From Candidatus Versatilivorator sp. (GTDB lineage Bacteria; Acidobacteriota; Terriglobia; Versatilivoradales; Versatilivoraceae): 64,000 nt of DNA. Below are positions 2,591-50,271 of this stretch, in pieces; within the stretch, counting starts at the first letter, position 1; every line of letters starts with the position of its first letter. The position numbers were made by a program, and so were the translations under genes. The notes beneath the pieces were generated by a model, which was not told the DNA's origin, ran no database searches, and was given only the letters and a program-made list of their open reading frames with translations. Where the stretch lies: contig OZ242296.1 of the NCBI GenBank assembly GCA_965207735.1, positions 1,309,808 through 1,373,807 of the forward strand, read 5' to 3'.

Positions 2591-2646
2591 GATCCTCCTC
2601 CCTTCTCGGTTGAATTCGCTATCCGAAACAGACTGAAACCCACGGG

Positions 2647-10476: not shown

Positions 10477-10542
10477 CGTTGGACTCCTGAGCCCGCACTT
10501 CTCACCGGGCCGCTTCCAGGGTGGAAAAAATTATGGAACCAA

Positions 10543-14684: not shown

Positions 14685-14717
14685 AAAAAGATTCAGGGAT
14701 GGCGCGGAATTCTCTCT

Positions 14718-16933: not shown

Positions 16934-16952
16934 CTGCCGGCTATCCGGACAC

Positions 16953-17411: not shown

Positions 17412-17714
17412 GGTTCTTCCTTTCAGTGAGGAGGCGTCGATCCGAAACTGCTTCGGGAAAAGTACACCGAGGGCCGGCCCTTCCATGACCCGGGCCGGGA
17501 AAATCATAACATCTCGCGTGAACTTGGGTCCGGCCTCCTTCGAATCCGGGACTCGCTCGGGTGGAACCGAAAAGGGTTCCGGACCCTTTCCGGAATGTAA
17601 AACAATCGGCAGTGGCAGCCGGTCATGCCAGGAGGCGGCGGGGAAGGCTGTTCGATAGCGCGATTACGAATAGACACCCCGGCTTCAGTGGAATGATCCG
17701 GCGGATGGGGACCC

Positions 17715-19178
17715 ATGAAACTCTTTCTCGCCTGCCTGGGCACGGAAACCAACACCTTTTCTCCTTTCCCCACCGGGTACCGTACCTTCGAGGAAACCTG
17801 CCTGGTCCGAGGCGGCGACCATGGCCGCAACCCGTTTCTCTTTGCAGTGCCACTGGTGCTCTGGCGCCAACTGGCCTCCGAGCGCGGCTGGGCGGTGGAG
17901 GAGAGCCTCTGCGCCTTCGCCCAGCCTTCCGGAGTGACACTGCGTAGCGTCTACGAGTCCTTCCGGGAAGAAATCCTGGAGGATCTCCGGCGGGCCCTGC
18001 CGGTCGACATGGTTCTGCTCAGTCTGCACGGAGCCATGGTCGCCGACGGATATGACGACTGCGAGGGGGACCTGCTGGCTCGCATTCGCGCCCTGGTCGG
18101 CCCAAAGGTACCGGTCGGGGCGGAATTGGATCTCCACTGTCATCTGACCCACCGGATGGTGGAGGAGGCCACCGCCATCGTCAGCTTCAAGGAGTACCCT
18201 CACACGGATGCCGCCGACCGGGCGCGGGAGCTCTTTCAGATCCTGTCCGCGACTGCCTCGGGCTCCCTCAAGCCTCACATGGCCCTCTACGATTGCCGCA
18301 TGATGGGCATCTACCACACCACCTCCGAACCCATGAAGAGCTTTCTGGAGCAAGTGAAGCACCTGGAGCAGCAGAAAGGGATCGTTTCGATCTCCATTGC
18401 CCATGGGTTTGTCTGGGGTGACGTTTCCGACATGGGAACTCGGATACTGGTTCTCAGCGACGGCAAACCCCGGGAAGGAGCTCGCCTGGCCGAATCCCTG
18501 GGCCGTCAACTGTTCCAGCTGCGTCATCGGCTCCAGCCCGACTACAAGACCATAGACGAGGCCCTGGGCGAGGCCTCGACCGGGGACGGAGATCCGGTGG
18601 TATTGGCGGACGTGGCCGACAACCCGGGCGGAGGCGCTCCCGGAGATTCCACCTTTATTCTCCAGGCGCTGGTCGATCGCCGGATGAAGGATGCCGGCCT
18701 GGCCTGCATCTGGGATCCGATGGCTGTAGCCGTGGCCAGTGAAGCGGGAGAAGGGGCCCGATTCGACCTGCGCCTCGGAGGCAAGACGGGGCCGAGCTCG
18801 GGCCGCCCCCTGGATCTTCGGGTGACGGTAACCAGGGTGGTCCCCGGCGCCCGCCAGACCTTCGGCAGCGGCGCCAACCGGTCGGTCTCGTCTCTGGGAG
18901 ATGCCGTCGCTCTGCGCGCCGGCGGTATAGACATCGTGGTCAACTCCATTCGCACTCAAACCCTGGGCAGCGACGCCTTCACCAGTCTGGGCATCGATCC
19001 TCGGACCAAGCGGATTTTGGTGGTGAAATCCATGCAGCATTTCCACGCTGCTTTCGCGCCCCTCGCCCGGCAAATCCTGTATGTGGACACACCGGGAGCC
19101 CTGGTAAGCGACCTGACGCGAATCCCCTTTGGCAACGCGGACCGGAGCAAGTGGCCAATCTGCGAGACTGTGACCTGA
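17715..19178 (+). CDS. MlrC-like M81-family metallopeptidase (DUF1485 + MlrC C-terminal domain), complete
   Basis: 487 aa. GTETNTFSP, HGAMVADGYDD, ADNPGGGAPGDST motifs. Paralog of the gene at 1-887. Confidence 0.85.
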   Translation: MKLFLACLGTETNTFSPFPTGYRTFEETCLVRGGDHGRNPFLFAVPLVLWRQLASERGWAVEESLCAFAQPSGVTLRSVYESFREEILEDLRRALPVDMVLLSLHGAMVADGYDDCEGDLLARIRALVGPKVPVGAELDLHCHLTHRMVEEATAIVSFKEYPHTDAADRARELFQILSATASGSLKPHMALYDCRMMGIYHTTSEPMKSFLEQVKHLEQQKGIVSISIAHGFVWGDVSDMGTRILVLSDGKPREGARLAESLGRQLFQLRHRLQPDYKTIDEALGEASTGDGDPVVLADVADNPGGGAPGDSTFILQALVDRRMKDAGLACIWDPMAVAVASEAGEGARFDLRLGGKTGPSSGRPLDLRVTVTRVVPGARQTFGSGANRSVSSLGDAVALRAGGIDIVVNSIRTQTLGSDAFTSLGIDPRTKRILVVKSMQHFHAAFAPLARQILYVDTPGALVSDLTRIPFGNADRSKWPICETVT

Positions 19179-25549: not shown

Positions 25550-26134
25550 TCAGAGCGCCTCCCCGACTCTGACCGTGATGGGTGAGGCGTGGTGGTGGAC
25601 CAGGTACCACTGACCCTCGACCCGGAAAAAGAGGTTGGTACCCTGAGCCTCAGAACGGCTGAAGTTGGCGTTCCGGAAACTCTCGATGTTCTCCAGGCAG
25701 GACACCCAGGCGAAGTCTCCGTTCACTCGGATCGAAACCTCGGTCGCCCGGATCTTCATGTGCTCGGTATTGCGGAAGATGGTGCCCCAGCTCTTGCGAA
25801 TCCTCTTCCAACCAGTCAGCAGTTCCCAACTCGGATGCACGCATTTGACCCAAGGCTCCTGAAGCCAGACCTTTCCCATGGCTCGGAGGCTCTGGTCGGA
25901 AACCGCCTGATAGAAGCGCCGGTTCACTCGAAACACCTCCAACTGCTCGCCGCTGAATCTTGCTTCTTCGCTCTCGGCGGCCCCATCTCCTTCAACCACT
26001 CCGGGACGAGCCTCGGCTGAGCCGCCGGCAGTCCCCTGCAGCCGGTCGGGAAAGACCGCGCCAGAAACCAGAATCAACGAAAGACAAAGAGCTGTCGCCC
26101 ACAGTATTCGTCTGACCGGGTACAAGTCACCCAT
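25550..26134 (-). CDS. NTF2-like / SnoaL-DUF4440-type small secreted protein
   Basis: Start at MGDLYPVRRILWATALCLSLILVSGAV (signal peptide). ~190 aa with an NTF2-like fold pattern. Confidence 0.55.
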   Translation of the reverse strand: MGDLYPVRRILWATALCLSLILVSGAVFPDRLQGTAGGSAEARPGVVEGDGAAESEEARFSGEQLEVFRVNRRFYQAVSDQSLRAMGKVWLQEPWVKCVHPSWELLTGWKRIRKSWGTIFRNTEHMKIRATEVSIRVNGDFAWVSCLENIESFRNANFSRSEAQGTNLFFRVEGQWYLVHHHASPITVRVGEAL

Positions 26135-26270
26135 CTCATGTCCTCCCATTTCTGCATTTCAGCCAAGTCCTCCCCGCCGTCCACGATGGGGCGAACCTTT
26201 CGAGGGTGAAACAACAAAAGTTCATTGCCTATTGGGAACAAGTATCCTTTCCGGTGAATCCGGATTCCCG

Positions 26271-26310
26271 GATTATTGAACATGGATGCACAGGATGCAC
26301 AGGATAATCA
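26271..26310 (+). repeat. solo subterminal inverted-repeat fragment (copy B) of the MITE-like family
   Basis: attattgaacatggatgcacaggatgcacaggata. Near-identical, in inverted orientation, to copy C at 32972-33001. Followed by an AT-rich segment. Confidence 0.5.
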
Positions 26311-26589
26311 GGACAGGAGGCCGCTGCGCGACCCGCAATCTCTCAAGTATAAACCATTAATTACAAAAGAGTTTATTTGGATCAGTCTGCTGCGGTTCCC
26401 TCATTATATCCCTTTTATTGAAAAGGAACCCCCTGGACAATCTAGGACGTTGGTGGAAAGGTCAGCCGAGTATCAACCCTGAATCCGAGGCCGTCAAGCG
26501 GGGTGGCAAGCTGCCCGTGTCGCGGATCGTAGCAACTATCCCCGACTTTCGATATTGTATGTTGTCGCTACCTAAATAGCCGTGAGTCC

Positions 26590-26807
26590 GTCGCTTGGCC
26601 GCTTCCCGGGCGTTGGATCTTTAACCCCCACAGCTTCCGCGTCCTGGTCGTGACCGATTTGCTTTCCCAGTGCGTGTCCCTTGAGGACGTGCAGGACCTG
26701 GCCGGACACCTAAGCCCCAGGACAAGCCAGATCTATGATCGCCGGCGACGGCGTGTGACGCGCGAAATCGTGGAGAGGATTTCCGTGTGGGCCTTGATGC
26801 CTTGAAG
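26590..26807 (+). pseudogene. tyrosine recombinase (phage-integrase family) C-terminal remnant
   Basis: Frame gives ...NPHSFRVLVVTDLLSQCVSLEDVQDLAGHLSPRTSQIYDRRRRRVTREIVERISVWALMP*. This is the conserved HxxR...LGH...Y catalytic C-terminus. An in-frame stop lies upstream (TAG at 26530-26532), so only ~70 aa are present. Confidence 0.6.
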
Positions 26808-27134
26808 GGAGGCTCCCAACATGTCATCGTCGTGGGCCCGCGCCGGCAAGGACCCAGCCGCTGCGGACCGCCTGGCTCGTCTGATGGACGAGGAGCTGAC
26901 AAAAGACCGAGACCGTGAGCTGCTGGAGCGATGGCGAGGCACGTAGGGACCGCTACCCCGGGGTGCTACGGGTCGTCAGAACCTGAAAAAACACAGCACA
27001 GGGAAACTGTCGGCTTTTTTTTCAGCCGATCAGGGTCAAACAGAAAATCGCAGGCTGGACCGCCGAGCTCAAGGATTTTGGGGGTGCCTGATGGGAATCA
27101 TGGCAAACTGGATGCCCATAACCAGGAACATAAA

Positions 27135-27505
27135 TCAATACGAGAACCAGTCTGCCATCCAGCCAATTCCCCTTGATCCTTGCAAGTAAACATGCAGCAG
27201 GTAGGCAAGAGAGTAAATGGTGGCAGCAGTTACCACTGTGCGATAAATCTCCTTGGTTGCTACAACTCTATGTCGGCGCCGCGTCTCCAACCATTTGTAC
27301 ACCAAGCCCCCTAATACAGCACTTGTTGACGCCCACAGCCAAGTTTCCAAATACCACGGCGAAGACACAGTAGAGTTTCCAAACCGAAGAGCGCAAAGAG
27401 AACTACAACTGCTGTGGAATGCGGGCTAGTCGCATCCAGGCCCCAAGACATATGTCGCCCGACATGCTGAAATGTCGAACTCTTATGTTTGCTCAGCTTG
27501 TTCAT
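27135..27505 (-). other. degenerate ORF fragments in a low-GC (~48%) segment
   Basis: Two overlapping short ORFs in different frames with hydrophobic stretches. Local GC is well below the window average. No recognisable family. Confidence 0.2.
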
Positions 27506-27779
27506 CGCATTGGCTATCTATCCACACACAGACAAGGCCACAAACTTCCCCGGCGGGGAGGTTAAGAGCGCCAATAGATGTACAGGATATTGCAGCACTA
27601 GGGCGTTTTGACATTCAGCAGAGCCTTTTGCAAAATTCACCGTAGGGCAGGCTTGTTAGCGGTGAGACGTGATGTGCGACGCGTGACTACCTGACAGCAA
27701 GAGCCCTTTTGAAGGTAAATCCCCAGATCTGAAGGCTGGATCGCAGGTTCTTGCAGAGCGCGGGCACAGCTTCCCCTCT

Positions 27780-28960
27780 GACCGCCCTGAGGCGGGTGTT
27801 ATCCGGCCCTGTCGGGAATCTGTGGCGACCCTCTCAAAGCGTCAGGCGCATCAACTGCTCCACCGTCAGCGCCAGAATGCCGAACATCAGGTGGCACATC
27901 ACCTGGTCGGGGCCGCGTACCCTGACGTGGCGTCCGCCAAACTCCTCCTTGAGCCGTCCGTTGACCCGCTCCACGGTCGAGCGTTCCCGGTAGCGCCGCG
28001 CCTCGGGAGACAGGTGGCCGATGCAGCGCTCGGCCAGCGCCTCCCGCTTCCGCTCGGCTTTCAGCTCGGCTCGCCTGCGGGGGTTGACGTCAATGATCGG
28101 CACATGGCCCAGCTTCTGGCTGAAGGCCCGGATCTCAGGAGCATCGTAGGCGCTGTCCATCAAGTCGTAAAGGCTGGTGACCCGCCTGGCGGTCAGCGTC
28201 GCCAGCGGGATGGCCACCTGAGAGTCATGCACCGAGGCCGAGGTCAGCAGGCAGCTGATGGGAATCCCCCCGTCGATGGCGTCGAGATGCAGCTTGTAGC
28301 CGGTCCATCTCTCCAGATACCCCTTCCCGGTGGACTTGACGCCGATGTCGCAGGCCCTGGGCAACTCCTCCAGCATCTCGTCCAACGTCATGGAGGCCTG
28401 CCGCTGCAGACGGCTCAACTCCTTGGGCCGTTGCTCGCCCTTCGGCGGCCGGCCCACCCGGCGCTTCGGCTTTGCCGCCGGGGCCGCCTTTGCCGCCGCC
28501 TTCTCACGCCCCGCAATGGCCGTCGAGTCCCTCGAAACATGGCCCGCCAAGTGGCCCTCCAGCGTCCGCTCCAGCAGCACCTTATACAAACGCCCCGCCA
28601 GGTCGCGGTCAGTAAACTCCCCAAAGGCGCGCGAGAAGGTCGCCTCGCTCGGCACACTCTCTGCCCCCTCCCAGCCGCACAGCCGGCGCAGGGTGCCATC
28701 GGGCCGCAGACGCTCCACCAGCCCCCGGGTGGTGGGCACGTTCAGCACCGCCTTCGCCAGGAAGGCACGCGCCAGCGCCGCCCGATCCTCCACGGCCGGC
28801 CCCGCCAGCCCCTCTGGTAGGGCACCCACTCCTCCACCCGCACCAGTTCCAACACCTGCACCAGCCGCTGGTAGCGGTTCCTCACGTATACCCTTGGGTC
28901 GGTGCCCATGGCCTTCGCCATGAAACGTGCCAGCTGTCACTTGAGCTAGTCAACTACTTC
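27780..28960 (-). mobile_element. IS5/IS1182-superfamily insertion sequence (boundaries approximate; inverted repeats not resolved)
   Basis: Contains a single DDE transposase gene with DUF772-type N-terminus (AALARAFLAKAVLNVPTTRGLVERL...LRRLCGW) and a C-terminal DDE domain (DSAYD...VERVNGRLKEEFG). Confidence 0.7.
27834..28921 (-). CDS. IS5/IS1182-family DDE transposase, apparently frameshifted near 28795
   Basis: N-terminus MAKAMGTDPRVYVRNRYQRLVQVLELVRVEEWVPYQRGWRGRP starts at the ATG at 28921 in one frame. The body from ...AVEDRAALARAFLAKAV onward is in another frame. The shift is inside a G/C run (ggggccggcc). Confidence 0.7.
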
Positions 28961-28965
28961 TTCTC

Positions 28966-29235
28966 CTACTTCTTCTCCACAACCTCTTCCAAAAAAAACT
29001 CCGTCCTGATCCTGTCGTCAAAATCCACCACGTTCCCCTCCTGACTAAAGACTCCTGGCCTGGGACCACCCGGTCCAATGGAAAACTTGGCTCCGGCTGT
29101 CCCTACGTACTTGTATTCACCGTCTTCTTTCAAGAAGACCTTGAAATTCACTTCAAACGTCCGCGTCTGCGGTGGTGCATCCCCCGCAGCAAATGCGAGC
29201 GCGGCCAGCAGCAAGACTACCGTTAGTATTCTCAT
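28966..29235 (-). CDS. small secreted protein of unknown function
   Basis: GGAAGG RBS then ATG. Signal peptide MRILTVVLLLAALAFAAG. ~70-aa mature protein. Immediately downstream of the ankyrin gene. Confidence 0.5.
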   Translation of the reverse strand: MRILTVVLLLAALAFAAGDAPPQTRTFEVNFKVFLKEDGEYKYVGTAGAKFSIGPGGPRPGVFSQEGNVVDFDDRIRTEFFLEEVVEKK

Positions 29236-29344
29236 TGTTCCTTCCAATAATAAAGGTTACAAGCAACACCAAAACCGAATGTACAGAGCCTCCAATTGGT
29301 CACAAACTATCTCTGCAGTAGCTCCCGGTCAGAGCATACGGCCG

Positions 29345-31567
29345 CTATTCAACCGCTTGTTGCAGACGCCGGCTAGCCCTGGAATCCTTTAACTCGTCTC
29401 TGTCTCTGGCAAAGTCCCAAGGCCGCCTGAACTCGCTGTCCAATATCTCGGGATCGGCTCCGGCGTCCAGTAGCGCGTCAATGACAGCCGGATTGTCGTT
29501 GCTCTCGGCAGCCTTGTGCAAAGGAGTGCGTTCCATGTGTTCAGTCTGAGCGTTGGGATTGGCGCCCGCCTGGATCAGTTCAGAGATAATTTCTGGATTG
29601 GTGTTGTGGCTGGACGCATTATGTAGCGGAGTCTCGCCGTATTTCGGACGACTGTTCGGGTCAGCGCCCGCCTGGATCAGGGCAGTAATGATGGCCGGAT
29701 TGGAATTGGTACTGGCTGCTCTATGCAGTGGCGTATCTCCTTGTTGGTCCCGTGCCTTTGGGTCCGCTCCTGCCTCCAAAAGGATGGTCGTGATAGCTGA
29801 ATTGACGTTGTGACCCGCTGCCTGGTGCAGGGGAGTGCTTCTCCCATCGTCCGCCGCATTGGGGTCCGCTCCCGCTTCCAGCAATGTCGTGATGATTTGC
29901 GGGTTGCTAGTTTGGCCGGCTGCCCAATGCAGGGGAGTATCACCGGATCGTGTCCGTGCTTTGGGGTCGGCCCCCGCCTTCAGCAATGTCACGATCACCT
30001 GTGGATTGCTATTGCTGGTAGCCGCCCCGTGCAGGACCGTTTCACCGCTTGCTGTCTGGGCCTTTAGGTCAGCACCGGCCTCGATCAGCGCACTGATGAT
30101 CGATGAGTTCTTATTTGTCCTGGCGGCCCTGTGCAAAGGAGTATAGCCCATCCCAAATCGAGCTTCGGGGTCTGCCCCGAGTCTCACGAGCGTAGTGATG
30201 ATCGCGGGGTTATCGCTGTCGCTGGCGGCCCAAAACAGGGGCGTGTACCCTGTATGATCGCGTGCGTCGACAGCCAGCCCCAACTTCACGAGACCAAGAA
30301 TGCTAGCCGGATTGCGACTGTTCTCGGCTGCCAGATGAAGGACCGTTCGACCCTTCCGGTCCCGCGCTTCGAGATCCGATCCAGCTCCCCATAAGGCAGA
30401 GACAAAATCAGGGTTGTAATCGAAGTTATACCGGGCGGTCCAATGAAAAGCGGTACGGCCTTCCCGATCCCGGGCCATCGGATCGATGCCCGCATCGACC
30501 AGTAGGGCGACGACCGCAGGATTTCTCATATACCTGGCAGCGTGATGCAGAGGGGTGCACTCTGCCTTGCCCCGCACCTTGGGATCCACCCCGGCTTCCA
30601 GCAACGCTGAGATGACGGCCGGATGACTGCGGCTACCTGCCTCGTGCAGGGCGGTGTGGCCCCGCCGATCCCGGGCCATCGGATCCACCCCCGCCTTCAC
30701 CAGCGCCTCGATGACGGCCGGGTTTTTTGTCGATCTGGCAGCGATATGCAAAGGGGTTTGCTCGGACTTGTCCTTGGCCGTGGGGTCCGCTCCGGCTTCC
30801 AGCAGGGCCGTCACCATGGCAAGACTTTCCGGATGCTCAGCGGCTACATGCAGAACTGTGCGGTCCCAATGATCGCGGGCCTTGATGTCCAGTCCTGCTT
30901 TGAGCAGCACTTCGACGACCGCGGGCACTCTCACCATGTGCCGCGCGGCCACGTGGAGAACAGTTCGTCCTTGCAGATCCCTTGCGTTGGGATCCCCCCC
31001 GGCTTTCACGAACGCTGACACAAAAGCTGCGGTCTTGTCGCTACCACTGTCGAACGGATTGGAAATGACACTCCAATGGAGGGCGTTGCGTGCGCTAAAA
31101 TTATCACCTGCAGCTGGATCTACACCTGCCTTCATCAGCACGTCGAGGACAGCAGGACTTCTGCTTCCCCTAGCTGTGTAATGTAAGGGAGTCCACCCTT
31201 GTGCCGTCCGCTCTTTGGGGTCCGCGCCGGCTTCCAAGAGTACAGTGACGATGGCAGGATTTTCGTTACCACCCGACAGATGGAAAGGGGTTGCGCCAAA
31301 CTCATCTCGCGCCGTTAGATCGGCCCCGGCCTCCAACAAGGCGGTGACGACAGCAGCGTCCTCATTAAATCTGGCCGCAATATGCAGAGGAGTTTTTCCT
31401 TGATCGTTCCTCACCTCGAGATCGGCCCCGGCTTCAAGGCAGCCAGTTACAATCTCCACCGTGGCTTGCCTGAAAAATGACTCCGAGTTCCATTTCTCGC
31501 AGTCCCTTCCAAGTGCCTGGAAGGATCCGAAAACCAGACAAGCGATCAAGAGCATCATGCGTGTCAT
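29345..31567 (-). CDS. secreted ankyrin-repeat protein (~21 tandem ANK repeats)
   Basis: GGAGGG RBS 8 nt before the ATG at 31567. Signal peptide MTRMMLLIACLVFGSFQALG. Repeated TPLHxAAxxxxxxxxxxLLxAGADxNA motifs throughout. Confidence 0.9.
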   Translation of the reverse strand: MTRMMLLIACLVFGSFQALGRDCEKWNSESFFRQATVEIVTGCLEAGADLEVRNDQGKTPLHIAARFNEDAAVVTALLEAGADLTARDEFGATPFHLSGGNENPAIVTVLLEAGADPKERTAQGWTPLHYTARGSRSPAVLDVLMKAGVDPAAGDNFSARNALHWSVISNPFDSGSDKTAAFVSAFVKAGGDPNARDLQGRTVLHVAARHMVRVPAVVEVLLKAGLDIKARDHWDRTVLHVAAEHPESLAMVTALLEAGADPTAKDKSEQTPLHIAARSTKNPAVIEALVKAGVDPMARDRRGHTALHEAGSRSHPAVISALLEAGVDPKVRGKAECTPLHHAARYMRNPAVVALLVDAGIDPMARDREGRTAFHWTARYNFDYNPDFVSALWGAGSDLEARDRKGRTVLHLAAENSRNPASILGLVKLGLAVDARDHTGYTPLFWAASDSDNPAIITTLVRLGADPEARFGMGYTPLHRAARTNKNSSIISALIEAGADLKAQTASGETVLHGAATSNSNPQVIVTLLKAGADPKARTRSGDTPLHWAAGQTSNPQIITTLLEAGADPNAADDGRSTPLHQAAGHNVNSAITTILLEAGADPKARDQQGDTPLHRAASTNSNPAIITALIQAGADPNSRPKYGETPLHNASSHNTNPEIISELIQAGANPNAQTEHMERTPLHKAAESNDNPAVIDALLDAGADPEILDSEFRRPWDFARDRDELKDSRASRRLQQAVE

Positions 31568-31986
31568 GTTTCTTACCCTCCGTCGCGGGTCGCACGTCTT
31601 TGAACCATTGGGGCCGAAGAACCCCACATTTTCCCGGTGCGATACGACTTAACGATCCGGCAAGAATACCGTGCAGAGTGCTAACGTGTGTTCCTGACTG
31701 TAAGAATCTATCGTTGAAAATCAGTATAGCAGCAGTCTTCACCAAGGGAGAAAGGCAACACACAATGAGGCTGGCAATCCGTCCAGTCCAGTTTGCTCTG
31801 CTTGTGCCCGGGATGCCAGCTCAGCAAGGAGGCACGTCTGCTACCGCGACCGCCAGAGGTGTCCGGGAGAAACGGAAGGCGTCTTTTCGAACCGGTCACC
31901 TTATACAGCGTCCACTTGAAGTTAGAGATGAGCCGGCTTACTATGGGAGTTAATCGCAACTTCAATAAGGCGGATATAGCGTAGGC

Positions 31987-32589
31987 TTGGAGATGAGCGG
32001 AAGCCCCCCTCTTTCCCCCTATGCGGTCGTGGCGTCGAGTTGGACCCTGGTTTGCTTTGCATCCGTCCCGGCCTTGGCTAACAACCTGCGCATCGTGAGC
32101 GGCAAGGCTCAGGTCCTGATGGTCAACACTTTGAAGGTCGATAACAAGATCGTCGATCTGAAGTGGATTATGTCCCTGCCGGACTATAGGCCAAACAAGA
32201 GTAGTGTGATCGAAGAGACCGCTGTCGCTGCGCTGAGAAAACGCATCGGTGACGAAACAGTGACCTGCGAGGTGAAGGTCCGCAAGCTGTTCCAGAACTT
32301 CAGGGTCCAGGAGGCCTTATCGGGGACATGTTACCTCGGGGATTCCACCAGGAGATTGGATCTGAACGGTTGGCTGGTGCGTCAGGGTTGGGCAAGCGCC
32401 AGCGGTCGTGGATGGGGCTGGCCGTACACGAAAGAAGAAAGAGAGGCCAGGGCCGAAGAAGCGGGCGCCTGGGCGCTCAGTAAGAAATTCCGATGGTGTT
32501 GCACTGGGGCAAACTCCCCGGGGAAGAGCGAACGGCAATCCCCCTCCGGACTGGACGAGTCCAGTTCCAGGATTGCTGTTGAAGAATAG
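31987..32589 (+). CDS. staphylococcal-nuclease-like (SNase/thermonuclease fold) protein, probably exported
   Basis: 200 aa. Hydrophobic N-terminus. ...LDLNGWLVRQGWASA resembles the SNase C-terminal motif. Assignment is tentative. Confidence 0.45.
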   Translation: MEMSGSPPLSPYAVVASSWTLVCFASVPALANNLRIVSGKAQVLMVNTLKVDNKIVDLKWIMSLPDYRPNKSSVIEETAVAALRKRIGDETVTCEVKVRKLFQNFRVQEALSGTCYLGDSTRRLDLNGWLVRQGWASASGRGWGWPYTKEEREARAEEAGAWALSKKFRWCCTGANSPGKSERQSPSGLDESSSRIAVEE

Positions 32590-32949
32590 GAACCCCGTGT
32601 GTCAACACCCGTCTCCACACCGCATATCCGAGGCCACAGTCGCAATTCTTTCCCGGATGACCGTCACAACCCTCGTTTGAGCTTCTCGGCCTTGCGCCGA
32701 ACCATCCGCCGGGCGGAATTGCCGGCATTCGGCTTGTCCTGCCTATGTTGCTCAAGCCGTGGGGTCACCGTCTCGGGAGTCTCGCCGCTGCACGGCGCAT
32801 CGCCCGCTGCGGCCCAGTCCCGCTCGCTCTGGGAGTGGTGTCCCGGCGGCATCCCGCGACGGCACCTATATCGACCTGCAGCTTTTGTGTTGTTGCTGCA
32901 CGAGAGGCTGACTCCGGTGATGATCGGGTGCGGATTTGCGGATGTCCGG

Positions 32950-33075
32950 GACTGCCAGCCAGCCGTCTCCGGAAAATATCCTGTGCATCCTGTGCATCCA
33001 TGTGAATCAATAATCTACTCATGCTTGACCTTGAACCGGTTTCCAGCCACCAGGCTCAGGGGGGTGTTTCAGGTA
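32950..33075 (-). repeat. partial MITE-family copy C (left arm only), inverted relative to copy B
   Basis: Reverse complement reads ggtggctggaaaccggttcaaggtcaagcatgagtagattattgattcacatggatgcacaggatgcacaggat. This matches the copy A left arm over ~75 nt. Confidence 0.5.
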
Positions 33076-33440
33076 GGTCTGGCCCCCGGCCAGGACAATC
33101 CCACGCTACCGATTTTCAGGGTGGCCGAACTGCCGAGGCATCCGAATCACCTCCACATTCCATGTTAAATTGCAGGGCGCCCCGTGTGGGTGCCCAATTC
33201 GGCTCTTGCTGGTAAAACCGAAACAAACGGGCAACCACAAGGGCTGCCCCTACGTTGGGGCGTTCAGCGTGGGATGGCCCTGCGCCCCTCGACCCGCTGT
33301 CTTGTCGGACCGCTGTTCTTGACACCTGCGCGGCCATTGATTAAATTGCCCGCATTGGTTCATGGTTTCTTCGGTCCGGGGGCGCAGCGCTGGGGTTGCC
33401 CTTGCCCGCCCGTCTCCCCCCTTCAAACGAGGTAGAGTGA

Positions 33441-34229
33441 ATGAGTTCCGTCAACAACGTCGATCGGTTCCGGCAGCGCCTGCAGGAAGGCAAGATTTGT
33501 GTGGGTACCTCTGTTTCGCTCACCGATCCCATCGTCAGCGAGCTGGCAGCCGAGGCTGGAAACGACCTGGTGTGGATCGAAATGGAGCACTCCTACCTCG
33601 ATCTTCGCGCATTGCTGGGACATCTGGCCGCGTTGCGTGGCACCCAGGCAGCTCCCATCGTTCGCGTCGCCTGGAACGATTCCGTCCTGATCAAGCCGAT
33701 CCTGGACCTGGCTCCGGCCGGCATCGTGGTCCCCATGGTCTGTACCGGCGAAGAGGCCGCCAAGGCGGTTGCCGCCTGTCGCTATCCGCCCCAGGGCGTT
33801 CGTGGATTCGGTCCCATCCGCAACATGTACGGCATCGAGAGCATGGAAGAATACCTGGCCATTGCCAGACAGCAAATCATGGTCTTTGTTCAGATCGAGC
33901 ACATCCAGGCCGTGCACAATCTGGACGAGATCCTGGCGACCCCCGGCCTGGACGGCGTCGTGATCGGCCGCAACGACCTGACGGGTTCCATGGGCAAGCT
34001 CGGCCAGCACAGCGACCCGGAAGTGCTCCAAACCATCGACAGCGTCTTCGCCAGGGTTCGTGAGACCGAGCTCTTTCTGGGCGCCTCGATCGGCTGCAAT
34101 CTCGAAACCGTCAAGGACTGGTACGGGAAGGGAGTTCAATGGTTCGCCCTGGGTGACGACGTAGTCCACTTTTTTGAGGGAGCCAAGGCGGTAGCCGACG
34201 AGGTCCACGCGTTGGGAGAAAACCGATAG
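33441..34229 (+). CDS. HpcH/HpaI-family 2-keto-3-deoxy-acid aldolase
   Basis: 262 aa with HpcH/HpaI aldolase motifs (VWIEMEHS, RVRETE..). RBS GAGG upstream. Confidence 0.85.
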   Translation: MSSVNNVDRFRQRLQEGKICVGTSVSLTDPIVSELAAEAGNDLVWIEMEHSYLDLRALLGHLAALRGTQAAPIVRVAWNDSVLIKPILDLAPAGIVVPMVCTGEEAAKAVAACRYPPQGVRGFGPIRNMYGIESMEEYLAIARQQIMVFVQIEHIQAVHNLDEILATPGLDGVVIGRNDLTGSMGKLGQHSDPEVLQTIDSVFARVRETELFLGASIGCNLETVKDWYGKGVQWFALGDDVVHFFEGAKAVADEVHALGENR

Positions 34230-34260
34230 CCCGTATTTCTCACCGGAGCCGGGGTGTATC

Positions 34261-35190
34261 ATGAAAAGGGGCTTGTTTTCAGTATCTTATCGACCATTTC
34301 CAGCGAATCTTCGCTCGAGAGCCGTGCCCGGCACACTCCCTGGGGAAAAACGTCAGCCAGCCGCCGATGAGAGGTGTCTCAATCGTCGGTTCGGCATCCC
34401 CGCGAGCGCGGCGGCGCGATTATTCCTTGTTGCGGCCTTCTTCCTGACCTGGATAACTGTCGGTAGCGCCCAGCAACGGGAAAACACCAATCCCCACACC
34501 ACACCGGAAGACGTTGCCGCGGGGGGCCGTATCTATCGCTCCCATTGCGTCGAATGCCACGGTCGCGACGGAACGGGGGGCCGCGGGCCCGATATTACGC
34601 GGGGAGACCTGCGCTATGGAAACAGCGATGCTGCGTTGGCCGACACCATCTCGACCGGGATTCCGGGCACCTCAATGCCGCTGTTCTTCTTCAACGGCAA
34701 GCAGCTCTGGCAGATTGTGGCATTCGTGCAATCGCTCCGGCGAGACGAACCTCAGCCCCCGGGAGACCCTGCCGCGGGCGCTGCAATTTTTCGCGGCAAG
34801 GGAGGCTGCGTCGCCTGCCACATGGTGGACGGTCAGGGTGGACGCCAGGGGCCCGATCTGACAACCGTCGGCGCCAGGCGCTCGCTTCGCCACCTGCGGA
34901 GCGCCGTCCTTGACCCCGACCAATGGGTTCATCCCCGCGACTGGAAGATTCAGGCCAAAACAAGGAGCGGTGCGCCGGTGGAAGGAGTGCGGCTCAACGA
35001 AGACACCCACTCTCTGCAACTGCTGGTCTCCGGCGACAAACTCATCTCGCTGGTCAAGAGCGACCTGGAAAGCTATCGGATCATCAAGTCGTCCGCCATG
35101 CCGCCTTATGCCGGCCGATTGAGTCAAAGCGAGCTGGATGACCTGGTGGCTTACCTCTACACGCTTCGTGGAAAGGGGGTATCCCCGTGA
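34261..35190 (+). CDS. diheme c-type cytochrome
   Basis: Two CxxCH motifs (CVECH, CVACH). One TM/signal segment. The stop overlaps the start of the PQQ dehydrogenase (GTGA). Confidence 0.8.
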   Translation: MKRGLFSVSYRPFPANLRSRAVPGTLPGEKRQPAADERCLNRRFGIPASAAARLFLVAAFFLTWITVGSAQQRENTNPHTTPEDVAAGGRIYRSHCVECHGRDGTGGRGPDITRGDLRYGNSDAALADTISTGIPGTSMPLFFFNGKQLWQIVAFVQSLRRDEPQPPGDPAAGAAIFRGKGGCVACHMVDGQGGRQGPDLTTVGARRSLRHLRSAVLDPDQWVHPRDWKIQAKTRSGAPVEGVRLNEDTHSLQLLVSGDKLISLVKSDLESYRIIKSSAMPPYAGRLSQSELDDLVAYLYTLRGKGVSP

Positions 35191-36794
35191 AGATACTGTC
35201 AACTGTCGCGCTCACAATTCTGTGGAGTGGAAGCCTCCTTGGGCAGGTCAGCTACCAGCGGCTCCTGAACGCCGACGACGAGCCGGGCAATTGGTTGACC
35301 TATTCCAGAACCTACAACAGCCAACGGTACAGCCACCTGGATCAGATCCGGAGGGACAACGTCAACAACCTGGAGCTGAAGTGGGTTTTCCAGGCCAAGT
35401 CTCTCGAGAACTTCGAGGCGACCCCTCTGGTAGTGGATGGGGTCATGTATCTGACCCGACCGCCCAATGTGGTGGTCGCGCTGGATGCCCGGACCGGACG
35501 CGTTTTCTGGACCTACCACCACAAGGTTCCAAAGGAAGTCAGCGTGTGCTGCGGCCTGGTCAACCGAGGGTTGGCCATCCTGGACGACCTTCTCTTCCTG
35601 GGCACGCTGGACGCCCGCCTGCAAGCCATCGATGCCAAGACCGGTTCCCTGGTGTGGGACGTGAAGCTGGCGGACTTCCGGGACGGCTATGCGGTCACCA
35701 TGGCCCCGCTCGCGGTCAAGGACAAGGTGATTGTAGGCATGGCCGGGGGAGAGTACGGCATTCGCGGTTTCCTGGAAGCCTACGAAGCCAAGACCGGCAA
35801 GAGAGCCTGGCGCTTTCATACCATCCCGGGCCCCGGCGAACCGGGGAACGATACCTGGGAGGGGGACTCCTGGAAAACCGGCGGGGGATCGGCCTGGCTG
35901 ACGGGCTCCTTCGACCCGGAACTGAACCTGCTCTATTGGGGAATCGGGAATCCCGGCCCCGATTGGAACGGTGACGTGCGCAAGGGCGACAATCTCTATT
36001 CCGACTCGGTGGTGGCCCTGAATCCCGACAACGGCCGGCTTCAATGGCATTTCCAGTTCACCCCCCACGACCTCTGGGACTACGATGCCGTGCAGATTCC
36101 CGTCCTGGTCGACATGGAATTCGGCGGCCGGGAGCGCAAGCTGATGCTGTGGGGGAACCGAAACGGTTTCTACTACGTTCTGGACCGAACGGATGGCAGC
36201 TTCCTGCTGGGAAAGGCCTTCGCCCACCAGACGTGGGCCGAAGGCCTGGATGAAAACGGACGGCCCATCAAGAGGGCTGGGGCCGAACCCAGTGTGGAGG
36301 GCACCTTGACCTACCCCAGCGTGCAGGGTGCAACCAACTGGTACTCGCCCTCCTACAGCCCCAGATCGGGGCTCTTCTACTTGTCTGCCTGGGAATATGC
36401 CAGCGTCTACTTCAAGGGCGATCCCACCTACGTTCGCGGGAACCGCTACATCGGAAGCTTCCCCAGGGGCGTTTACCCGGACGTCATGGTGGACACCGAC
36501 CCGGGTTACGGCGCCGTGCGGGCCCTGGACCCCAAGACCGGCCAACGCAAGTGGGAATACAAGATGACCAGCGTGACCGAGGGTGGGATTCTGACCACTG
36601 CCGGCGACGTCCTGTTCTCGGGTAACATGGAGGGGCATGTCTTCGCCCTGGACGTCTTCGACGGCAGCCTCCTGTGGAGCCGCAACCTGGGCGGGCGGGT
36701 CATCAGTTCACCCATCACCTACCTGGTCGACGACAAACAGCACTATTCCATCGTTGCCGGGAATTCCCTCTACACCTTTGTTCTGAAGGATTGA
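35187..36794 (+). CDS. PQQ-dependent alcohol/methanol dehydrogenase, type I quinoprotein with D-Y-D motif (XoxF/PedH-like, predicted lanthanide-dependent)
   Basis: Signal peptide. Vicinal Cys pair (SVCCGLVNRG). Eight-blade propeller W motifs. HDLWDYDAV around the catalytic Asp. Confidence 0.85.
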   Translation: MKILSTVALTILWSGSLLGQVSYQRLLNADDEPGNWLTYSRTYNSQRYSHLDQIRRDNVNNLELKWVFQAKSLENFEATPLVVDGVMYLTRPPNVVVALDARTGRVFWTYHHKVPKEVSVCCGLVNRGLAILDDLLFLGTLDARLQAIDAKTGSLVWDVKLADFRDGYAVTMAPLAVKDKVIVGMAGGEYGIRGFLEAYEAKTGKRAWRFHTIPGPGEPGNDTWEGDSWKTGGGSAWLTGSFDPELNLLYWGIGNPGPDWNGDVRKGDNLYSDSVVALNPDNGRLQWHFQFTPHDLWDYDAVQIPVLVDMEFGGRERKLMLWGNRNGFYYVLDRTDGSFLLGKAFAHQTWAEGLDENGRPIKRAGAEPSVEGTLTYPSVQGATNWYSPSYSPRSGLFYLSAWEYASVYFKGDPTYVRGNRYIGSFPRGVYPDVMVDTDPGYGAVRALDPKTGQRKWEYKMTSVTEGGILTTAGDVLFSGNMEGHVFALDVFDGSLLWSRNLGGRVISSPITYLVDDKQHYSIVAGNSLYTFVLKD

Positions 36795-36805
36795 ACGCTG
36801 CTCCA

Positions 36806-37190
36806 TTGCCTGAAACAGCTCCCGTCATCGGGCGTCGGGAACCCGGTTCAATGTCAAGCATGGGTAGATGGTTTATTAACATGGATGGACAGGATATACA
36901 GGATTTTTGGCGAGAGTTACCACCTTCTTGAGTTCAACCATCGCCCATGCTTCAAAGAGGATTCCAAGACCCGCCCCCGGCTCAGGGAACACCTCGAAGC
37001 CTCACCCGATCATTGAGCACAACCGCTTTTTGTGCCGTAGCGTCTCGTCCCGTTAATCCTGTCTATCCTGTGTATCCATGTTCAAAATGTAGAAAACCGG
37101 TTTAGCGGAACGTGGCACTTATTCCCGATAGGCCCGAAAGGCCGTTGTATCACTCTCGAGTGATCCGCACGGCAGGACGGCGGCGACTGA
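36806..37190 (+). mobile_element. MITE-like non-autonomous element, full copy D
   Basis: attgcctgaaacag...aacccggttcaatgtcaagcatgggtag...aacatggatggacaggatatacaggat ... atcctgtctatcctgtgtatccatgttcaaaatgtagaaaaccggttt ... cactctcgagtgatccgcacggcaggacggcgg. Same architecture as copy A. Confidence 0.55.
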
Positions 37191-37247
37191 ACAGCGGCGC
37201 TCGACCAAGCCAATGATCCCTGTTCTCCACATCTTCTGAGGAACTCC

Positions 37248-38579
37248 ATGCTGAATGGAATCTTCGTCGTAATCGTCCTGTTTTCCATCCTGATGGCGGC
37301 CTTTTCGGGACGCATGGAGATGCTGAGCCAGGCCGTGCTGGAGTCGGCCCGCTCGGCTGTCACCCTGGCCCTGGGTCTCATCGGTGTCATGGCTTTTTTC
37401 CTGGGCCTCATGCGAGTGGCCTCGGACGGGGGCCTCTTGCGCATCATGGCCCGTGCCGTGTATCCGGTGATGCGATTCCTCTTCCCGGCCATCCCCAAGG
37501 ATCATCCCGCCATGAGCGCCATGATCCTGAACATCACCTCCAACCTCCTTGGACTGGGGAACGCCGCGACTCCCTTCGGACTCAAGGCCATGATGGAACT
37601 GGACCGGCTCAACAACGAAAAGGGCACCGCAACCGACGCCATGGTGCTCTTCCTGGCCCTCAATACCTCCGGCCTGGCGCTGCTGCCCCTGGGTGTCATC
37701 AGCTTGAGAGCCGCGGCCGGTTCTCAGGATGCCGCGGGAATCATGGCAACCACCTGGTTTGCCAGTGGATGCGCCACCGTAGCCGCCATTTTGGCGGCAA
37801 GCCTGCTGTCCCGCACCTCACGCTACCGCTTGGCCAAAACGATTCCTGCCCAGGTTGAACAGGAGCGGCCGGCTGAATCCCCCGCCTCCGATCAGGCCCA
37901 GCCGGAAGACCTGTCCCCGCTAGGCCAGTCCCAACCGGAACTGACTCCTCCCCGCTGGGGCAAGCCGGTAGTCCTCCTTTTCTGGCTGGCTTTGTTGACC
38001 GCTCTGACTTTTCATATCCTGAGACAGATGACTATCACCCCAACTCTGGACCTGGTACGGAGCATCATGTCTTTCTGGATGCTTCCGGCTCTGATCGCGG
38101 GGCTGGTGCTGTTCGGATGGACCCGAGGCGTCAAGGTCTATGAATCTCTGGTGGAAGGAGCCAAGGAGGGGTTCCAGGTTGCCGTGAAAATCATTCCCTA
38201 CCTGGTCGCCATCCTGGTGGCCATCGGAATTTTTCGGGCATCGGGGGGCTTGGAACTGTTGGCCAAGGCGATCGGCCCGCTCACCAACCTGATCGGCATG
38301 CCCGCCGAAGCCTTGCCCGTGGCCCTGGTGCGGCCGCTCTCCGGCAGCGGGGCGCTGGGAGTGATGACCGAGATCATGAACGCCCAGGGGCCGGACTCCT
38401 TCACCGGTTACATGGTCTGTACCTTTAACGGAAGCACCGACACCACCTTCTACATTCTGGCGGTGTACTTTGGCTCGATCGGCATCAAGAGGACCCGCCA
38501 CGCCCTGCCGGCCTGCCTGACCGCGGATGTGACCGGCATCCTGGCGGCAGTCCTGATTGTGAACCTGCTGTTCGGATAG
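37248..38579 (+). CDS. nucleoside-recognition (Gate) domain membrane protein, fused SpmA/SpmB-like
   Basis: 443 aa, multi-TM, with two Gate-like halves and a Pro/Glu-rich linker. Confidence 0.7.
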   Translation: MLNGIFVVIVLFSILMAAFSGRMEMLSQAVLESARSAVTLALGLIGVMAFFLGLMRVASDGGLLRIMARAVYPVMRFLFPAIPKDHPAMSAMILNITSNLLGLGNAATPFGLKAMMELDRLNNEKGTATDAMVLFLALNTSGLALLPLGVISLRAAAGSQDAAGIMATTWFASGCATVAAILAASLLSRTSRYRLAKTIPAQVEQERPAESPASDQAQPEDLSPLGQSQPELTPPRWGKPVVLLFWLALLTALTFHILRQMTITPTLDLVRSIMSFWMLPALIAGLVLFGWTRGVKVYESLVEGAKEGFQVAVKIIPYLVAILVAIGIFRASGGLELLAKAIGPLTNLIGMPAEALPVALVRPLSGSGALGVMTEIMNAQGPDSFTGYMVCTFNGSTDTTFYILAVYFGSIGIKRTRHALPACLTADVTGILAAVLIVNLLFG

Positions 38580-38658
38580 TCCGCAGGCAGGCTTCCTTGC
38601 CGAACCGATTGTCCTGAGCAGTCTGTCGGTACCCGAAGCCTTGGATCAGGGAGGCAGC

Positions 38659-39216
38659 ATGGCCCACATTCGAATGATCGCACCGGAAGCAGCCGAAGGC
38701 GCTCTCAAGGCGGAATATGCCTTGGCCATGGGGCGTTCGGGTAAGGTCTTCAACATCCTGAAGATCCAGAGCCTCAATGCTGCCACGCTTCATGCCAGCA
38801 TGGCCCTCTATGTGGCCACCATGCACGGGCCCTCCGGTCTTTCCAGGGCCGAGCGGGAAATGCTGGCCACGGTGGTTTCTCAACTCAACAACTGCTTCTA
38901 CTGAATGGAAGGCCACGGGGAGGATCTCCGTGCCCTGACGGGAAATCGATCACTTGCCGAGACCGTCAAGCGAAATTATCGGGACGCCCAGCTCAGCCCG
39001 CGCGAGCGGGCCTTGTGCGAGTTTGCCGAAAAACTCACCCTTCATCCCTCCCGAATGAGCACCGAGGACTGCCAAACGTTGAGAAGGGAGGGGCTCGACG
39101 ATCGAGATATCCTGGATGCCGTCGAAGTGATCTCCTACTTCAATTACATTAACCGCGTCGCCGAAGGGTTGGGAGTAGACCTGGAACCTGAAATGAAGCG
39201 CCCTGCAAAAGAGTGA
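38659..39216 (+). CDS. AhpD-like / carboxymuconolactone-decarboxylase (CMD) family peroxidase-related protein with in-frame UGA (38902-38904) predicted to encode selenocysteine
   Basis: GGGAGG RBS before the ATG at 38659. The ORF track splits it into 38641-38904 and 38905-39216, which are contiguous and in frame. Read through, the sequence is ...VVSQLNNCFY-U-MEGHGEDL. That is C-x-x-U-x-x-x-H, matching the CxxCxxxH active site of AhpD/CMD proteins. A hairpin starts 7 nt after the UGA. Confidence 0.6.
38911..38935 (+). promoter_or_regulatory. candidate bacterial SECIS-like stem-loop downstream of the in-frame UGA
   Basis: ggccacgggg aggat ctccgtgccc. 7-bp stem plus two closing G-C pairs. Apical loop AGGAU lies ~17-21 nt after the UGA. 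Confidence 0.4.
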
Positions 39217-39288
39217 TTCCGGCCATCTTGCCGGTGTCCATGATGGTGTACCTGCTCGAATGCACCGCGCTCGGGAGTGAACTGACCG

Positions 39289-40875
39289 ATGAACCGACGT
39301 CTTGTTCTCGTCCTGATCTGGGGATTGGGCCTGATGTCCGCCGCCCAGTGCAGCCTGTTTCAGGAAGATCTCAGCCGTGTCCGTCTCTCGCTGGTCGACA
39401 GCAAGACCGGCAAACCCGTCCCGGGGGTGATTCGCTGTTTTGTCCAGGGCCAGGAGGAAGCGGTTCCCATCCATGGTCTACTGGAACGGGGACAAGGGGT
39501 GGGGTCGGTTGCCCTGCAGCAACTGGGCAAACGGCCGCCACGCCGCCCCATCCATGACTGGTACGTTCTGTCCGGGGCCAGCGAAGTGATGCTGCCCAAG
39601 AAGCCCTTGCGCCTGGAAGCCTTCTCGGGCCTCGAAACGGAGATGGCGACTCTCGAGGTCGACCTCAGCAGGAGGGATCGGGCCTCCTTGACCCTTCCCC
39701 TGGAGTCATTCAGCCAAATAAAAGAAAAGAAGTGGTTTGGCGGTAACACTCACCTGCATCTCTTCAAGCTCGACCGGGAAGAAGCTGATCGTTACCTGCG
39801 CGAAATCCCTGCTGCGGACCGGTTGGACGTTCTGTTTACCTCCTTTTTGATCCGCCCCTCCGAAGACGCCGACTACATTACCAACCGCTACCCCATCGGT
39901 GACCTCACCCAATTCCATTCCACCGGGGTGCTGGTCAACCAGGGTGAGGAGCATCGTCACAACCTGACTCCTTGGAGTGGAGGCTACGGCCACGTCATGC
40001 TGCTGAACATCAAGAATCTCATCCGGCCGGTCAGCATCGGTCCGGGCATCACGGGGACCGGCACTGACGGGATTCCCCTGCAGCAAGGGATCGATGAAGC
40101 TCATCGCCAGGGAGGAACGGCCATTTGGTGCCACAACGACTTCGGACTGGAACGGGTGGTCAACTTCGTCCTGGGCAAGGTCGATGCCCAGAACATATTC
40201 GACGGGCTGTCGCTGGAGGACTATCCCCAATTCGAGGACACCTTTTATCACTACCTGAATGCCGGGCTCAAGGTTCCCTTCTCGACCGGCACCGATTGGT
40301 TCCTGTTCGATCTTGCCAGAGCCTACACCCGGGTTGCGGAACCTTTGGGAATCGCTTCCTGGCTGGAAGCGCTCAAGCAGGGGCGTTCCTTCATCACCAA
40401 TGGACCCCTGTTTCACTTCCTGGTGGAGGACCAATCGATCGGAGATACCGTCTCATTGAGATCCCCCGGAGAGGTCGGAATCGAGGGTCGGGTGTCGGGG
40501 CGGGTCGACTTTGGCCACCTGGAACTGATCCACAACGGCCGGGTGGTCGACCGCATCCCATCCCGAAGGACCGAGGAACACTATTCGGCCGAACTGAAGA
40601 AAATGTTTCGGGTGGAAGAACCCGGATGGCTGGCGCTGAGAGTCTCCGGGCAGGCCGACAGTGAGTACGGGTTGCCCATCTTCGGACACACTTCGGCGAT
40701 CTATCTCGAGGTGGAGGGAAAATCGATCCGGCAGCCCGCCGCGGTGGACCATCTAAGGAGAGAGATTCAGGAGGCGAGAACAACGGTGGCCGACGAGGCG
40801 CTCTTTGCCACGCCCGAGGAACGAAAGCGAGTACTGGACATCTATGACCAGGGTCTTGCCGCCCTCGAAAAATAA
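39289..40875 (+). CDS. secreted putative metal-dependent hydrolase (PHP / CehA-McbA-like)
   Basis: Signal peptide MNRRLVLVLIWGLGLMSAAQC. GGNTHLHLF and WCHNDFG His-rich motifs. Function tentative. Confidence 0.5.
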   Translation: MNRRLVLVLIWGLGLMSAAQCSLFQEDLSRVRLSLVDSKTGKPVPGVIRCFVQGQEEAVPIHGLLERGQGVGSVALQQLGKRPPRRPIHDWYVLSGASEVMLPKKPLRLEAFSGLETEMATLEVDLSRRDRASLTLPLESFSQIKEKKWFGGNTHLHLFKLDREEADRYLREIPAADRLDVLFTSFLIRPSEDADYITNRYPIGDLTQFHSTGVLVNQGEEHRHNLTPWSGGYGHVMLLNIKNLIRPVSIGPGITGTGTDGIPLQQGIDEAHRQGGTAIWCHNDFGLERVVNFVLGKVDAQNIFDGLSLEDYPQFEDTFYHYLNAGLKVPFSTGTDWFLFDLARAYTRVAEPLGIASWLEALKQGRSFITNGPLFHFLVEDQSIGDTVSLRSPGEVGIEGRVSGRVDFGHLELIHNGRVVDRIPSRRTEEHYSAELKKMFRVEEPGWLALRVSGQADSEYGLPIFGHTSAIYLEVEGKSIRQPAAVDHLRREIQEARTTVADEALFATPEERKRVLDIYDQGLAALEK

Positions 40876-40907
40876 CATCCCGGCTTCGAGCATCAGTAGC
40901 GGCCTGA

Positions 40908-40937
40908 TTAACATGGATGGACAGGATATACAGGATC
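40908..40937 (+). repeat. solo copy E of the MITE subterminal repeat
   Basis: attaacatggatggacaggatatacaggat. Identical over 30 nt to the copy D left arm. Interior side faces right. Confidence 0.45.
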
Positions 40938-50195: not shown

Positions 50196-50271
50196 GGCGA
50201 GGTACCCAAGTGGCTAAGGGAGAGGTCTGCAAAACCTTTATTCAGGGGTTCGAATCCCCTCCTCGCCTCCA
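50196..50271 (+). tRNA. tRNA-Cys (anticodon GCA)
   Basis: Cloverleaf: acceptor GGCGAGG/CCTCGCC, 3-bp D stem, anticodon stem GAGGT/ACCTT, loop CUGCAAA, T arm AGGGG-TTCGAAT-CCCCT, discriminator U73, encoded CCA. Confidence 0.9.

Follow-up and report, generated by a model that had tools for sequence, protein, structure and literature searches.

A decayed genomic island of a sponge-associated acidobacterium, probably integrated into a dispersed repeat related to GxxExxY cassettes

Introduction

Islands carried by P4-type tyrosine integrases accrete in tandem and have integrase-less derivatives, cis-mobilisable elements (CIMEs), as described for the ICESt1/ICESt3 family. Here we analyse a region of this kind in a Candidatus Versatilivorator-like acidobacterium from sponges. 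The window, by which we mean the whole 64,000-nucleotide stretch of contig OZ242296.1 (assembly GCA_965207735.1) that was analysed, holds a 6.8-kb unit with genes for a small secreted protein, an ankyrin-repeat protein and a protein with a predicted staphylococcal nuclease (SNase) fold, bounded by two arms of a short repeat; positions without a contig name are counted from the window's first letter. We read the unit as a genomic island, probably inserted site-specifically by a P4-type tyrosine integrase into a short dispersed repeat between a SnoaL-like and an HpcH gene, and we put the probability of this reading at about 0.8.

Three related contigs, L121, L122 and L204, span the locus and show how far it resembles P4-type islands and CIMEs. 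An integrase gene of the family with Arm-DNA-bind_3, Phage_int_M and Phage_integrase domains lies at one end of the L204 island and at neither end of the window's. The arms are AT-rich, a short direct-repeat core stands at both junctions, a third core copy parts tandem modules in L204, and relatives lack the island at the orthologous site. Like a CIME, the window version is an integrase-less derivative that still lies between att-like cores. It is unlike P4-type islands in its attachment site, which would be a conserved site of about 10 bp in a dispersed, multi-copy repeat and not a tRNA or unique gene.

The repeat has parallels of its own. In REP/RAYT systems (REPINs) a HUH Y1 transposase, RAYT, is flanked by repetitive extragenic palindromic (REP) hairpins, and the insertion sequences (ISs) IS1397/ISKpn1 and IS621 insert into REP sequences. 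At our locus, too, a mobile element would target another dispersed repeat, the inserter being a multi-kilobase tyrosine-integrase island and not an IS. As in REP/RAYT and in miniature inverted-repeat transposable elements (MITEs) and their ISs, a small gene is bracketed by inverted ends, gene-less inverted pairs are far more numerous in intergenic DNA, and copies vary among relatives. However, the gene (PDDEXK_3) encodes a GxxExxY protein of ~125 aa with a PD-(D/E)XK fold, where those systems have HUH Y1 or DDE transposases; the ends consist of 2-3 (up to ~10) direct 9-bp units with an ACAGGAT core, not of palindromic hairpins or simple terminal inverted repeats; the two arms lack complementarity in the spacer bases of their arrays (e.g. 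in L076); and there is no target-site duplication at the copy M2 described below.

Results and discussion

The island separates two halves of one short element

The sequence-only reading had described near-identical, inward-facing repeats on the two sides of the region. Both are present, a few bases away from where it had placed them: perfect copies of the 25-mer CATGGATGCACAGGATGCACAGGAT lie at 26281-26305 (+) and 32978-33002 (-), and six further copies with at most 3 mismatches are found elsewhere in the window (14791+, 14971-, 36880+, 37056-, 40912+ and 60155-), compared with 0 expected in shuffled sequence. Similarity around the arms also extends further outward than had been reported. The 96 nt at 32978-33073 are 91% complementary to M1, a full copy, at its left end (14720-14815); on the other side, 26273-26321 and the sequence outward of it to ~26172 match right ends of full copies in reverse-complement orientation. 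The outer stretch at 26150-26280 matches the right ends of full copies (15004-15101) and of L028, L046 and L041, and is conserved in L204 (1-180). Since the arm at 26281 is a right end and the arm at 32978 a left end, the region has the shape of one reversed element with 6.6 kb in its middle.

An intact counterpart of ~160 bp is found in another acidobacterial metagenome-assembled genome (L106, 5251-5410), and of such an element the window's arms are one half each, right and left; together they rebuild it with a 10-bp overlap. Inward of the arms, 26306-26331 shares homology with one interior side of the L106 element and 32894-32977 with the other; elements in L111 and L034 are homologous too. 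A core of ~10 bp stands at both junctions of the window, GCTGCGCGAC at 26323-26332 on the left and GCTGCACGAG at 32895-32904 on the right (8/10 identical), and in the alignment the intact L106 element has one core only, GCTGCTGCACGAG. When the window was aligned with the left, middle and right junctions of L204, homology to the element reached up to the core at left junctions and ran from the core onward at right junctions. The core is therefore a short direct repeat at both junctions and a single copy in the unoccupied element, as an att core is.

Two independent, separately truncated solo repeats could in principle flank ordinary chromosomal or accessory DNA by chance. The repeat is dense, with two full and four partial copies (8 arms) in the 64-kb window, solo arms are known at 40912 and 60155, and judged only by position, two inward-facing arms at a distance of 6-7 kb would not be surprising (~0.15 by a rough estimate). 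We nevertheless regard a chance pair as very unlikely, because one arm is of L type and the other of the complementary R type within one subfamily, and the core stands at both junctions. The arms have the GC/GC spacer variant and the subfamily interior in common and jointly rebuild the L106 element, and the DNA between them is absent from L121 and L122.

The orthologous site is empty, differently filled or larger in relatives

Pfam assigned the flanking proteins to DUF1501, SnoaL_3, HpcH and cytochrome c, which for the SnoaL_3 (NTF2-like) and HpcH genes agrees with the housekeeping-type flanks described earlier. In L121 (~83-88% nucleotide identity) the SnoaL and HpcH genes are 366 bp apart, with no array, element or island. 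In L122 (94% identity) the locus holds 913 bp of different repeat modules, including an uninterrupted relic (...KLVHKKLIGSIFECAF...). Homology of the window to L122 ends at 26149 and the last block in common with L121 at 25956; both restart at 33310/33311, and everything between the window's arms is absent from both relatives. A target-site duplication flanking the region had also been proposed as something to look for, and none was seen outside the arms.

The third relative, L204 (96-99% identity), carries a larger, integrase-bearing version of the window island. Identity is 98.7% over 28882-32899 and 96.4% over 32896-39320, and L204 has 3045 bp that the window lacks, placed exactly at the core at 32895-32904. 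Three core copies in L204 delimit a cargo island, A, and the 3045-bp module, B, which has an AT-rich arm, a Phage_int_M + Phage_integrase gene (11460-12338) and a 316-aa open reading frame (ORF). In the data searched, the cargo block was found at this locus only, in L204. With an empty site in L121, another filling in L122 and a larger island with integrase in L204, the locus essentially bears out the earlier suggestion of an insertion hotspot that decays in place.

A family of P4-type integrases joins the same core at five loci

The integrase of L204 is a member of a P4-type family whose proteins are ~410 aa long and have Arm-DNA-bind_3, Phage_int_M and Phage_integrase domains. There are more than 120 distinct clusters of this family at 84-90% identity, and a single 5.77-Mb chromosome carries at least 4 paralogues. 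At four unrelated loci with intact integrase copies (L208-L211), a common upstream arm abuts ...CTGTGCAGCAAC of the repeat's L-half, and the junction at which ...GTGCAGCAAC is followed by the integrase arm is found at all five, L208-L211 and L204. Such junctions between integrase arm and core are the signature that site-specific integration into a dispersed attB would be predicted to leave. L209 contains two integrases of the family (10001-11233 and 16943-18178) that are convergent and 6 kb apart, which suggests adjacent or rearranged islands.

Taken together, the split arms, the core at the junctions, the L204 island, the recurrent targeting of the core and the empty site in L121 argue for a site-specifically integrated island. 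Several observations weigh against this reading. The L204 integrase is truncated at its N-terminus (292 aa compared with ~410), and L208-L211 display the integrase-proximal junction only, not both island ends. The two cores of the window differ at 2/10 positions. On the left side of the island, the window (26457-28881) and L204 (348-5786) have different sequences, which points to additional events in its history. Finally, the window has no intact integrase, and its sole recombinase remnant is not homologous to the L204 integrase, so that integration is inferred from the relatives; we had considered this remnant as a relic of an L204-type integrase and rejected the idea for want of homology.

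In the course of events that we consider most consistent with these data, the integrase would use the repeat as a multi-copy attB, and islands would have accreted in tandem, L204 being made up of cargo island A and integrase module B. The lineage of the window may have lost module B by recombination between cores, or may never have acquired it. What remains would be an integrase-less island still between att sites, in the manner of a cis-mobilisable element, and its left side would later have been eroded by insertion of an IS5-family element and by replacement or deletion. In its present state the window island is integrase-less and decayed.

As one of two possibilities, the sequence-only reading had offered that the small element family had captured or mobilised cargo between two of its ends; the unit would then be a 6.8-kb composite or filled member of the repeat family that moves by its two terminal arms. 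The arms do have the correct inverted L/R layout for one element, and the presence or absence of M2 among relatives indicates that the family has been mobile. However, the arms are halves of one element that is split at the core of the integrase junctions: the break lies at a specific internal site common to integrase junctions at five loci, and what distinguishes the window from L204 is entire modules with that core at their borders. A canonical cassette is ~0.5 kb long with a gene for a 125-aa GxxExxY protein, and the island has no such gene. Neither two complete copies nor a duplication outside the arms, as in a MITE-bounded composite, were found, and in the data within reach there was no second locus with arms and cargo, the cargo occurring only in L204 at this locus. 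We therefore consider a composite element very unlikely.

The repeat is related to cassettes encoding GxxExxY proteins

A scan of species-representative genomes with GATNNACAGGATNNACAGGAT gave more than 120 loci from a wide range of phyla, Methanoperedens among them, often as +/- pairs 40-180 bp apart. By our estimate ~70 single matches are expected by chance in the 596 Gb searched; chance does not account for the pairs or the conserved flanks. The 7-bp core of the arrays is constant across Acidobacteriota, Chloroflexota, Verrucomicrobiota, Planctomycetota, Latescibacterota and archaea. Clustering of the ORFs near 120 array loci linked no transposase to the arrays. Large clusters (ABC transporters, epimerases) were set aside as generic, and a small PDDEXK_3 / TIGR04256 'GxxExxY' cluster was found. 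Gene-less array pairs, also present in Methanoperedens/Methanosarcinales archaea, far outnumber gene-bearing ones and adjoin unrelated genes.

Intact cassette proteins from elsewhere match both PF13366 and TIGR04256 with E values of 1e-37 to 1e-42. In the intact cassette of L085 the start codon lies inside the array ATGGATAGACAGGATAGGCAAGAT, which reads MDRQDRQD, and an inverted array follows ~100 bp past the stop codon; in the corresponding array of the window, the R arm, an ATG opens the reading MDAQDAQD. For an unbiased test we used a core-only protein alignment from which array-encoded residues had been removed, and retrieved 80 metagenome loci. A forward array lay at most 350 bp upstream in 38/73 GxxExxY loci and an inverted array at most 350 bp downstream in 37/74, with both in 25; the chance of an array was estimated at ~6e-5 per search interval. 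Arrays accompany roughly half of the sampled genes, in many phyla. Depending on the lineage, the array is in one or another reading frame or just upstream of the ATG, and is therefore a DNA-level feature.

The interior of M1 matches the L085 protein (tblastn, 49% over 41 aa, including ~9 array-encoded N-terminal residues) and positions 1-39 of the core-only hidden Markov model (HMM) in the predicted frame (E 0.012). The integrase core encodes LLHE, the start of the GxxExxY domain. The window holds relics only, which correspond to N- and C-terminal parts of PF13366/TIGR04256; its relic ORFs gave no NCBIfam match and partial GxxExxY matches. Judged from its sequence, the repeat is a degenerate GxxExxY (PF13366 / TIGR04256) PD-(D/E)XK cassette of which the (ACAGGATnn)n arrays are the conserved inverted ends.

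The earlier label of a MITE family thus fits the shape of the element and misses its origin, which would be a GxxExxY cassette and not a derivative of a known IS. M1 and M2 are ~360 bp long, non-coding and present in multiple copies, with inverted arrays and outer boxes, and the gene-bearing form encodes the PD-(D/E)XK protein and no recognised transposase. Of the three relatives, only L204 has M2; neither L121 nor L122 does. Aligned with L122, the window shows M2 as a clean insertion of 363 bp, with AACGCT on one side and a TGATCC hairpin on the other, and in this one case the target is not duplicated. L121 and L122 likewise lack the solo arm at 40886-40936.

Could the arrays instead be immobile regulatory or structural sites (operators, terminators, leaders with a ribosome-binding site), and the island strain-variable DNA in a plastic intergenic region? 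In some lineages the AGGAT of the last unit stands 8-17 nt upstream of a start codon, like a ribosome-binding site, and no transposase is associated with the arrays. Set against this are the great excess of gene-less pairs beside unrelated genes, the clean M2 indel between close relatives and a single 7-bp core from archaea to Acidobacteria, and the junctions between core and integrase are left unexplained; we consider such a role highly improbable. Integron attC sites, or arm-type sites of the local integrase remnant, were ruled out, the arrays bracketing GxxExxY genes in integrase-free genomes and the copies being scattered. DnaA boxes, Pho boxes and parS half-sites were also considered and rejected, as they match poorly.

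The ACAGGAT core is not universal, given that one GxxExxY plasmid gene adjoins 9-mers with GCGGAT and another a different repeat. Only 8 GxxExxY genes were found in a plasmid collection, and two were inspected: downstream of the gene in Gemmatirosa kalamazoonensis plasmid 1 (L212, ~1900-2000), GCGGATnnn x3 is followed by ATCCGCnnn x3, and in a Fusobacteria plasmid (L213) the gene is flanked by direct copies of CAGATTTAATCCGTGTACCTAT.

A superfamily catalogue lists the GxxExxY family as of unknown function with 'multiple transfers' (PMC3424549). Our search of the literature on GxxExxY/PF13366 returned this entry and incidental mentions, with no description of flanking arrays, and searches by sequence strings gave nothing relevant on the arrays. 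A PDB sequence search with a GxxExxY protein had no match. Rfam at gathering thresholds found only tRNA-Cys in the window, and E-value searches with M1 and eight cassette loci found only spurious miRNA-hairpin matches. Exact look-up of the window's HpcH protein and of P0183 returned no record.

The island itself is of an ordinary kind, a decaying integrative island with symbiosis-type secreted proteins, and it illustrates the gain and loss of such genes by sponge symbionts. The unusual parts are the dispersed-repeat attachment site and the association of arrays with GxxExxY genes. An integrase family that attaches at a dispersed repeat and not at a unique gene has more landing sites, which fits the unusually many integrase paralogues per genome and probably drives the tandem accretion and strain variability of the locus. 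Through the array association, a large family with no known function is tied to one particular DNA motif, and the GxxExxY protein is predicted to bind or cut the arrays. More tentatively, and at somewhat less than even odds, the arrays and the GxxExxY gene may form an undescribed selfish cassette spread across many bacterial phyla, with MITE-like gene-less derivatives, and the P4-type integrases of sponge-associated Acidobacteria may have specialised on its 10-bp relic site, hence their many paralogues.

Island contents and neighbouring features

The features of the locus are collected in Table 1.

Table 1. Coordinates of the island, its bounding arms and the full copies of the repeat in the window
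Feature	Position	Strand	Remarks
Full short copy M1	14712-15075	+	~360 bp, reference; interior appears to be an internally deleted GxxExxY gene, - strand (14994 to 14818)
R-end outer part, reverse orientation	26150-26280	+	Hairpin module CCCCGCC..GGGGCG, terminus GTGAAACAAC, CCGGAT repeats
R arm	26281-26305	+	CATGGAT GC ACAGGAT GC ACAGGAT; 5' end of relic GxxExxY cassette
Relic interior, left	26306-26332	+	Ends in attL-like core GCTGCGCGAC; aligned with L106 and L204 left junction
AT-rich left arm of island	26333-26456	+	Common to L204; GC 49%
Window-specific patchwork	26457-27620	+	Tyrosine-recombinase remnant, 41-codon ORF 26822-26946, low GC; absent from L204
Tyrosine-recombinase C-terminal remnant	26581-26805	+	PF00589, E 1.3e-5, below gathering score
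IS5-family insertion sequence	27621-28881	-	Transposase ORF within 27834-28940 (-); DUF772 + DDE_Tnp_1
Conserved cargo block	28882-32894		98.7% identical to L204 5787-9791; three genes
Small secreted protein	28966-29247	-	Signal-peptide-like N-terminus
Ankyrin-repeat protein	29345-31627	-	760-aa ORF, ~740 aa from ATG; Pfam Ank
SNase-fold protein (predicted)	31987-32589	+	200 aa; fold search SNase/SND1
attR-like core GCTGCACGAG	32895-32904	+	Encodes LLHE in relic frame
Relic interior, right	32905-32977	+	Translates ..RLTPVMIGCGFADV..; degenerate GxxExxY N-terminus; homologous to L106, L111 and L034 interiors
L arm	32978-33002	-	Inverted array, 3' side of relic cassette; exact match
L-end outer part	33003-33075	-	GAAACCGGTT box, terminus CCTGAAACA
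Hairpin-rich variable DNA	33076-33310		Homology to L121 and L122 back only at 33310/33311
Full short copy M2	36800-37162	+	~360 bp; present or absent by relative

Several genes predicted from the letters alone held up. Pfam supports the 740-aa ankyrin protein and, weakly, the tyrosine-recombinase remnant; the small secreted protein has the expected N-terminus; and a GC scan recovered the low-GC stretch, at 49-51% over 26.2-27.6 kb compared with ~60-63% in the flanks (parts of the island as a whole are at 49-57%). Positions 1-347 of L204 align to 26101-26456 of the window with 83% identity. Within the recombinase remnant, 26683-26787 is 78% identical to L210 14569-14673.

The transposase had been called frameshifted and of IS5/IS1182 type. 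Its IS5 type is borne out by its domains, and the frameshift is unsupported, as the gene is an uninterrupted 368-aa ORF and that of an IS copy in L210 has 378 aa. The two ISs are 81.6% identical over 1263 bp, and homology to L204 restarts at 28882, right after the IS.

The SNase-like protein had no Pfam match and no PDB sequence match, and it is the fold that agrees with the earlier call: Foldseek placed its AlphaFold model with SND1 SN domains and staphylococcal nuclease (E 3e-5), the model having a mean predicted local distance difference test score of 65.5 (78-91 at residues 31-60, 64-89 at residues 61-140), so that an SNase fold is predicted. Secreted ankyrin, SNase-fold and small proteins are a kind of cargo reported for sponge symbionts. 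In place of the window's IS and remnants, L204 has, at 951-5440, genes for a 1010-aa SNF2/ResIII helicase and a 486-aa protein without Pfam match, which may be a defence-type module.

Beside the island, a second segment varies between strains: of the cytochrome c and PQQ-repeat genes at 34232-36582, L121 has only a truncated piece of PQQ. A C-terminal GxxExxY remnant lies at 59652-59777 (+; core-only HMM positions 77-118, E 5.5e-5) and adjoins the second copy of a 95-nt direct repeat (50322-50416 and 59781-59875, 85% identity), the first copy of which starts ~50 bp past the tRNA-Cys gene (50196-50271); these repeats could be the ends of another island, of ~9.5 kb. Just upstream of M1, 14217-14567 consists of three tandem 117-nt units, the others 86% and 62% identical to the first. 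At 58343-59571 there is a tandem array of ~182-nt units, each of which has CCACGAAGGGGCACGAAG boxes and a hairpin module, ATGATCCGCACGGCAGGGCGG, bracketed by the termini TTGTTTCA and TGAAACAA, and modules of this array recur as intergenic filler in L122 and L121.

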